This document shows, piece by piece, positions 12,828-14,330 of a stretch of DNA of 64,000 nt. The notes beneath the pieces are model-generated. The model did no database searches. It worked only from the letters and a program-made list of their open reading frames with translations, and had not been told where the DNA came from. Location of the stretch: NCBI RefSeq assembly GCF_003018255.1, contig NZ_CP027440.1. One strand, written 5' to 3'. The position numbers and the translations under genes were made by a program. Positions within the stretch are counted from its first letter, which is position 1. Each line of letters starts with the position of its first letter. Source of the DNA: Escherichia coli. GTDB lineage: Bacteria > Pseudomonadota > Gammaproteobacteria > Enterobacterales > Enterobacteriaceae.

Positions 12828-13259
12828 TTATGTTGGCGTTTTCTATTCAGTATAGAAGTCGGAGCGGCTGGGCGAGATGCGGAAGTTCTGGAATGTTTCT
12901 TTTTTTGATGATGGTGACTGAAGCAAATTGGCTACATTTTGCAATATGACAAGTTATGGCAGTGCGGACTGGTGGCGAAGAATTTTGACGATTGAGGCAT
13001 GCAGAATAAAACGGGTTCAGCTTCAGTTGATCAAATGAGGATTGAGAAGTCCGAAACAGGACTTACTGTATAAATAAACAGCTATTTTGCTAAGGAAGGG
13101 TAAGATAACGGCGGGTGCCTGAAGCTTTCCGGTTTCAGGTTTACTCTGAGGTCTGGAAAGATGAAGCCCCAGGAGATATTTCTATCAATCCTGGGGCTGC
13201 CACTCCAAACCCAAACAATTTGGATGGTAGTCCCTTCTTCGCATGGAGGCAATATAAAC

Positions 13260-13397
13260 ATGCTGACGAAATATGCCCTTGTGGCGGTCATGGTGCTGTG
13301 TTTAAAGGTAATTTTTATCCGGTTTATTCGGAGCAATAGTGATTGCAAGCGTATCAAGAAAATTCTTATAGAACTGAGCAATTTGTTGCCAGAATGA
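13260..13397 (+). CDS. Hok-family toxin-like small membrane peptide (hokE-like, divergent C-terminal half), preceded in frame by a mok-like leader from 13161
   Basis: [15 protein letters not shown] matches the Hok/HokE N-terminal transmembrane segment; the rest diverges from K-12 HokE and becomes AT-rich. Confidence 0.4.
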   Translation: [45 protein letters not shown]

Positions 13398-14330
13398 CGA
13401 TACAACCTGATCCAGAAGTAATATAGAACGCCCGTCGCAAACTTGGGGAGTATGCAGAACATGGAATGCCTGAGAAGGATAACCACTCCAGTCAACGGCA
13501 ATGACGCACAACGTAAGGTCTCGGGGCTGAAACCGGGTAATATTATGAAAAATAGCCGGGATATCGCGGTGTAAAGCGTCATTGCCTGGCAGGCGATCGA
13601 TGGGCTTAATCTTGTTTTAACCTGAGCATTACCTGGCATATACCGTCCAATGCTGGTAAGGATGAGGGATGCGTCCCGACTAAGCGCAGCAGTGGCGTCA
13701 AGGATGGCATTCTGGCGGTACTGATGAAATGGAGTCAAATCATCACGGAAAAACTTTTGGCATGATGAGCGAACGGGCATAGAGGTGATCTCCTGAATTG
13801 TTAGCACAACCAGTCGACCACAAAACTCTATGCCCGTCTTTTTTACCCGCCTATTACTGAGGATTTCTCCGTACCATTACCGGCATTTGTTATCTTTCAT
13901 TGCTACATACGTCATCCCCCAACAAAGCAATGCTTTATAATATTATCGTAATGTCTTATTTTTTATTATTGCGATGGCTTTCTGAACATTTTATAGTGTT
14001 AGGTGTAAATCATTTATATTGATTCACGATAGGAGGATATGGACACCACACTTATTTTATGTCACTCAAGAAACACTTAAAATTCGTTGCACGTGTTATT
14101 ATTCTATTAAATAATTGCACATAATAGATTTTTTCTATTATGTAATAAAATAAAACACTATTAGATACTAGATATGCTAATGGTTTTATACTCTAAATAA
14201 TTCGAGTTACAGGTAGTGTATAAGTGAGTTCCCAAGAGCTTGCATAAGTAAGTGACTGAGGGAGCGTAAGTGCAGTACATGCAACTTGTTGCATGACAAA
14301 TATATTATCTATTAACAATAAGAGGTTATA

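Follow-up and report, generated by a model that had tools for sequence, protein, structure and literature searches.

Does the short open reading frame downstream of ybdK, which begins like a Hok toxin and then departs from the family, encode a toxin of its own, or is it what a rearrangement left of an ordinary one? The question was raised by an earlier note on this DNA, where the frame was seen to adjoin a remnant of no assignable family, perhaps at the left junction of an island, with the toxin gene altered by recombination. Our analysis indicates, with high confidence, that this is a decayed hokE type I toxin-antitoxin locus, severed after codon 15/16 and joined head-on to a truncated, frameshifted and inverted 5' fragment of an IS4-family element. 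The window (the whole 64-kb stretch of DNA that was analysed) is E. coli chromosome and is 99.7% collinear with strain JNE23-011 across 25.5 kb. Its gene order runs cusCFBA, pheP, ybdG, nfsB, ybdF, ybdJ, ybdK, hokE stump, island, entD, fepA, fes and the remaining ent/fep genes; ordinary strains of E. coli have sokE/mokE/hokE immediately beyond ybdK. The features on which the argument rests, with the evidence that placed them where this applies, are as follows.

11700-12818, minus strand: ybdK
13082-13807, minus strand: 241-aa antisense ORF
13113-13259, plus strand: hokE mRNA leader / sokE-mokE region, intact (Rfam RF01794; ~99% identity to the CS18F hokE locus)
13161-13397, plus strand: 78-aa ORF, the mokE frame, an in-frame extension of the 45-aa ORF
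13260-13309, plus strand: hokE 5' stump, codons 1 to 15/16 (alignment to intact hokE, the WP_000956465.1 locus)
13260-13397, plus strand: chimeric 45-aa ORF, 15 Hok residues followed by 30 residues from transposase antisense
13306-13310, no strand: novel hokE'/IS4' junction (three-way alignment of the window, intact hokE and related IS copies)
13310 to ~13871, minus strand: IS4-family (ISSfl1/ISSfl9/IS10-like) insertion sequence remnant (blastn, tblastn, NCBIfam and inverted-repeat alignment)
13615-13618, minus strand: 1-nt deletion in a homopolymer of the transposase (A5 to A4 on the minus strand), with a frameshift after ~codon 56
13780, minus strand: transposase start ATG

The left partner of the junction is a hokE locus of the usual kind. 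The stretch 12820-13309 reaches 99.2% identity at best to the hokE loci of thousands of E. coli genomes, and 14 of the first 15 residues of the 45-aa frame are those of HokE, so the Hok-like N-terminus that was noticed earlier is not a chance resemblance. The conserved hok leader, with its antisense Sok target and upstream overlapping mok frame, is present here: the Rfam 'sok' model RF01794 matches at full length over 13113-13268 (85.7 bits against a gathering score of 59; E = 3e-19), and the mokE start ATG at 13161 is in frame with hokE, as it is at the intact locus. When the window was aligned with the hokE locus of strain CS18F, a comparison of the kind that the earlier note had proposed for K-12, the match was near-perfect (~99% identity) through GTGCTGTGTTTAA and random beyond it. 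Collinearity with intact hokE thus ends at 13305-13309, at codon 15/16. The hokE 3' half and the region downstream of it (reference locus L002, 4491-6055) gave zero matches anywhere in the 64-kb window.

Several smaller observations belong to the same region. RefSeq annotates no hokE at the stump and places a pseudogene ('hypothetical protein, frameshifted') on the minus strand at 13023-13291, antisense to the sokE/mokE/hokE leader; the same annotation occurs at intact hokE loci, and it is probably an annotation artefact. A match to the Rfam mir-331 model (20.5 bits against a gathering score of 80) was set aside as chance, and a promoter and terminator consensus scan of 12820-14340 returned fewer sites than shuffled sequence and nothing informative. 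Elsewhere, E. whittamii (L006) and E. coli SCPM-O-B-8794 (L008) carry two tandem hokE-like copies, ~500 bp apart and adjoining entD, instead of one.

To the right of the junction, the sequence belongs to an insertion sequence. A sensitive blastn search with 13310-13860 showed ~70-73% identity to IS4-family, ISSfl1 or ISSfl9 transposase genes in 641 genomes. With the complete 399-aa IS4 transposase of E. coli H22 as query, tblastn returned two minus-strand segments in different frames with a combined E = 2e-48: residues 1-59 correspond to 13780-13604 (68% identity) and residues 56-152 to 13616-13326 (55% identity). The switch of frame is explained by a single-base gap, which shows when the DNA is aligned with two relatives that are intact (the plus-strand T-run at 13615-13618), and it appears both in tblastn and in the three-frame translation. 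Once frame-corrected, the 159-aa fragment matched the NCBIfam IS4-family model NF033591 (E = 1.8e-19, profile positions 3-111 of 340), with a score below the full-length cut-off, as only a fragment remains. Its homologues number 155, with identities of up to 80%; the closest in the databases are IS4 transposase fragments from Salmonella, which have 79-80% amino acid identity to it and in every case cover residues 1-153. On the upstream side of the ATG, the window aligns with complete copies out to the terminal inverted repeat, which reads ...CATTACTGGGGATTCCTCAG in H22 and ...TATTACTGAGGATTTCTCCG in the window, where it ends at 13871. The remnant adjoining the toxin gene, which had been drawn to 13860, is thus real and ends at ~13871. 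In JNE23-011, RefSeq labels the same stretch 'IS4 family transposase; frameshifted; incomplete', and no copy more than 90% identical to the remnant was found elsewhere in complete E. coli genomes.

What is left amounts to ~560 of ~1320 bp and comprises the outer terminal inverted repeat, the promoter-proximal region and transposase codons 1 to ~153 of ~399 (the N-terminal 38%); the C-terminal two thirds of the transposase and the second IS end are missing. In a full-length relative, the DDE_Tnp_1 match covers residues 95-323, and the remnant keeps only the first ~60 residues of that span. An active element has a complete DDE domain and two terminal inverted repeats, and here there are one repeat and one frameshift. 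Because most of the DDE domain and the second IS end are lacking, the fragment would be unable to transpose and is presumably immobile.

The same comparison accounts for the long antisense ORF at 13082-13807. This ORF exists, as had been stated, yet its product is not unassignable. It consists of a true transposase N-terminus (M at 13780), out-of-frame transposase after 13615, and the antisense of hokE/mokE/sok after 13310, and is an artefactual chance chimera of 241 aa. It matched no Pfam family, and the exact sequence was absent from a collection of ~15 billion proteins. Pfam searches of the raw ORFs gave only a sub-threshold DUF3165 hit; the identity of the transposase emerged only through DNA-level and frameshift-aware comparison. 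With regard to base composition, the G+C content is 48% in 13260-13309, 34% in 13310-13397, 49% in 13398-13871 and ~31% from 13872 on. The AT-rich turn that had been reported after the Hok-like residues is therefore correct locally, while the lasting shift begins only at 13872, ~560 bp further right.

How the two partners came to be joined can be read in part from where each one ends. The breakpoint is ambiguous by ~4 bp at most (AGGT, 13306-13309); these bases could derive from either partner, and they are a possible microhomology. The break in hokE falls among the codons of the transmembrane helix and that in the IS within the transposase, at ~codon 153, so neither lies at a natural boundary. 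Transposition joins an IS terminus to target DNA, and the one terminal repeat preserved here faces away from hokE. Since neither partner ends at a natural boundary, we infer that the junction arose when a site inside the IS was joined to hokE by deletion or illegitimate recombination, and not from simple transposition as a primary insertion. Such an event would have removed the 3' two thirds of both hokE and the transposase, together with whatever lay between them. In this sense, the proposal that the toxin gene had been altered by recombination is borne out by the loss of hokE homology at 13305-13309 and the IS4 remnant joined there.

The junction is also the left border of something larger. 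Homology to normal hokE loci, once it has stopped, resumes only at 21123, in entD; the normal 3' end of hokE and the hokE-entD spacer are replaced by a 7.8-kb block that holds the IS4 remnant, an AT-rich dispersin/Aat cluster and an IS630 remnant, with a divergent entD next to it. The parts of the block and its right flank are listed here.

13872-21122, plus strand: rest of the replacement block, with AT-rich cargo of 31% G+C
14331-14693: dispersin/CexE-like gene for a 120-aa secreted protein (PDB 2JVU dispersin, E = 3.3e-23; PF28204 Dispersin)
14775-19704: aatPABCD-like genes (from domain content and order)
~19828-20840: IS630-family pseudogene, frameshifted, at the right end of the island
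21123-21872: entD
21873-23306: IS3-family element (two-ORF, programmed-frameshift type), between entD and fepA

The domains of the Aat-like genes follow one another as an FtsX/MacB_PCD permease, a TolC-like OEP, an HlyD_3 adaptor, an ABC_tran ATPase and a CN_hydrolase/Lnt-like protein. Acylation and export of dispersin/CexE are the work of the Aat system (PMC7943197). The cargo is most closely related to clusters on E. coli plasmids (~79% nucleotide identity); none of these clusters has the IS4 remnant or the upstream AT-rich spacer, and they therefore give no clue to the formation of the left end. At the other end, the IS630-family pseudogene shares 91-95% identity with copies on Pantoea and Salmonella plasmids, and the 282 bp at 20841-21122 have no match in other E. 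coli genomes.

This block is rare. A megablast search of 12820-14330 against 5426 complete E. coli genomes matched 5410 of them, and all but three matched only at 12820-13309 (query 1-490). The block arrangement was found in those three (JNE23-011, JNE112863 and DETEC-S792), and the suggested left island junction is borne out for an IS-bounded, mostly AT-rich segment. The same 81-bp junction, without a difference, was present in all 12 loci that searching with the fusion ORF retrieved from assemblies (NCBI, ENA and Logan), metagenomes included. Some assemblies (L013, L015 and L016) carry a further 2.58-kb deletion, corresponding to window 13425-16002, by which the greater part of the IS4 remnant has been lost together with the dispersin-like gene, aatP and the aatA 5' end. 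As these assemblies keep the identical hokE'::IS4' junction, the island is decaying in a sub-lineage.

Of the other readings considered, the one that fares best is that the junction was made in a donor lineage. Homologous recombination would then have carried everything from the hokE stump through the island to entD into E. coli, the left-hand crossover falling in the hokE leader or 5' coding region. We hold this tentatively, as a serious possibility that falls somewhat short of being the likelier course of events; it refines our explanation and does not contradict it. The principal argument comes from the right flank. entD has ~84% nucleotide identity to entD in 5421 other E. coli genomes, and EntD 72-78% amino acid identity to five Escherichia species, whereas fepA, beyond the IS3 insertion, is 99.5% identical to that of ordinary E. 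coli. Given this difference between the two genes, the imported segment seems to include entD, which suggests that entD was brought in together with the island from a donor lineage outside the searched set. A second argument comes from the stump, where two A>G changes particular to this lineage, at 13286 and 13292 (one of them giving I11M), are present in all junction-bearing sequences. Both lie within 24 bp of the junction, and of the four differences that set the locus apart from normal hokE loci, three in all fall inside that distance. Chance is an unlikely cause of this clustering (binomial P ~5e-4, or ~5e-3 when the junctional base is left out), although the test is post hoc, which counts against a donor origin. 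The two changes were absent from all six other Escherichia hokE copies in which they were looked for, a further point against it, and a derivation from any of the Escherichia species examined was rejected on that ground; they are compatible with a donor origin without being proof of it. A search for the donor of the island and the divergent entD, made with the EntD protein against 100,044 species-representative genomes, gave only ordinary Escherichia entD loci (72-78%) and no island, which also counts against this origin.

A plainer history would be an IS4-family insertion into hokE, with the 3' half of the gene lying beyond the element. IS elements are common at or near chromosomal hok loci. 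IS421/IS186-type copies adjoin hokE in other strains, of which CS18F is an example, with the order hokE, IS421-type element, entD and with the element 77 bp downstream of the intact hokE reading frame; experimental IS150 insertions close to hokE have also been reported (PMC5419217). Here, however, the IS is joined to hokE internally and not at a terminal repeat, the intact repeat at 13871 points away from hokE, and the 3' half of hokE is absent from the whole window. The internal join point and the missing 3' half led us to reject simple insertion, which we consider very unlikely.

The same breakpoint bears on the reading that the frame encodes a working toxin of the Hok family, naturally divergent, with a C-terminal half that evolved away from HokE. 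The start codon, the leader, the mokE frame and the sok region are all intact, the ORF stays open for 45 codons, and in some assemblies NCBI pipelines have given the name 'type I toxin-antitoxin system hok family toxin' to a form of the fusion ORF that is 57 aa long (records P0122 and P0126). Gradual divergence is nevertheless hard to reconcile with a drop from 99% identity to random at one nucleotide position. After residue 15, as had been noticed, the peptide diverges from HokE and shows only scattered chance identities. Residues 16-45 are unrelated to HokE; they are the antisense reading of recognisable transposase codons, ~125-153. Judged from these alignments, the C-terminus is antisense read-through of a transposase fragment and not a divergent Hok domain.

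Comparison with the family gives the same picture. A Pfam scan of the 45-aa and 78-aa ORFs found no HOK_GEF (PF01848) match at E <= 1, under conditions in which intact CS18F HokE scored 34.0 bits against a cut-off of 22, and the NCBIfam HokA model gave the fusion 16.8 bits against a cut-off of 89. Full-length alignment to a functional Hok, with nothing mobile next to it, had been named as the outcome that would speak against a recombined gene; what we found is a peptide outside HOK_GEF beside an IS4 transposase fragment. The ~20-residue uncharged transmembrane helix and the conserved C-terminal portion that go with Hok/Gef membership are both missing from the fusion. Its uncharged hydrophobic stretch is 11 residues long (5-15), compared with 21 (5-25) in HokE, and the transmembrane segment is broken by K16, R21 and R24, where HokE is hydrophobic. 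A 19-residue stretch of the fusion nonetheless keeps a fairly high Kyte-Doolittle mean, 2.4 against 2.9 for HokE. The breakpoint analysis already largely refutes a divergent toxin, and we regard one as highly improbable. Given that the fusion fails the HOK_GEF model and that its uncharged stretch shrinks from 21 residues to 11, the 45-aa product is most likely an inert pseudogene product, and the 'hok family toxin' name of the 57-aa version looks like over-annotation of a pseudogene.

If the locus is read as a severed hokE, its consequences would be modest. The fusion peptide keeps only half of the Hok transmembrane helix, would not span the membrane as Hok does, and is not expected to be toxic, although it might conceivably retain some membrane affinity. 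The 3' end of a hok mRNA carries a fold-back element that pairs with the 5' end and controls translation. At this locus, the native 3' end is gone: the window has nothing of the reference locus beyond hokE codon 16 (L002, from 4491 on). SokE RNA and a shortened hokE' transcript may still be made, with no toxin left to regulate, and as a toxin-antitoxin system the locus is most likely functionally inert. One could instead imagine that the fusion, as the 45-aa or the 78-aa Mok-fused form, is a new small membrane-active peptide, driven by the hokE promoter, restrained by SokE and kept because it stabilises the dispersin/Aat island. This would be a type I toxin locus re-tooled by IS-mediated rearrangement, and we give the idea very little credence. 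This hokE copy is an ordinary gene remnant, not a new toxin.

An assembly or sequencing artefact that produced a chimeric join has a negligible probability and is excluded, as three complete genomes, which come from two countries, and at least 12 contigs assembled independently all show the identical junction.

Every component of the locus is of a known kind: hokE/sokE, an IS4-family element and a dispersin/Aat island. Mobile-element-associated damage to a chromosomal hok copy at the border of an island is likewise well known; this specific junction is rare, already present in public genomes and partly annotated. Its practical value lies in correct annotation, with the short ORF as a hokE pseudogene and the antisense ORF as an IS4 transposase fragment, and in showing precisely where, on its left side, a rare chromosomal dispersin/Aat island begins. 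It is a further case of chromosomal hok decay by rearrangement associated with a mobile element, and it opens no new biological question.

Set against known systems, the locus resembles hokE/sokE (PF01848; RF01794) in its position beside ybdK, in a leader that is 99% identical, in the mokE frame and in the first 15 codons, and it differs in that codons 17-50, the stop and the 3' untranslated end are replaced by unrelated sequence, so that the product misses the family model. It is also like the chromosomal hok-sok loci of E. coli K-12, which, in the account of them given in PMC2654758 (citing Pedersen & Gerdes 1999), were inactivated by IS elements, point mutations and large rearrangements. 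Unlike CS18F, where the IS lies downstream of an intact hokE, the hokE frame of the window is itself cut, and the IS to which it is joined belongs to another type and has an internal deletion. The IS remnant shares with the ISSfl1/ISSfl9/IS10-like IS4 group (NF033591) the CTGAGG-type terminal repeat, the 5' untranslated spacing and residues 1-153 at 55-80% identity; it is unlike full-length members of the group (Pfam DDE_Tnp_1) in its reduced length, its one frameshift and its lack of a second end. Finally, the island is like the Aat/dispersin system (aap/cexE and aatPABCD; PMC7943197, PMC7478709) in its 120-aa dispersin homologue with a Gly after the predicted signal peptide and in its aatPABCD order. 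In contrast to known Aat clusters, it is chromosomal, lies between hokE and entD, and has only ~79% nucleotide identity to the nearest plasmid clusters.
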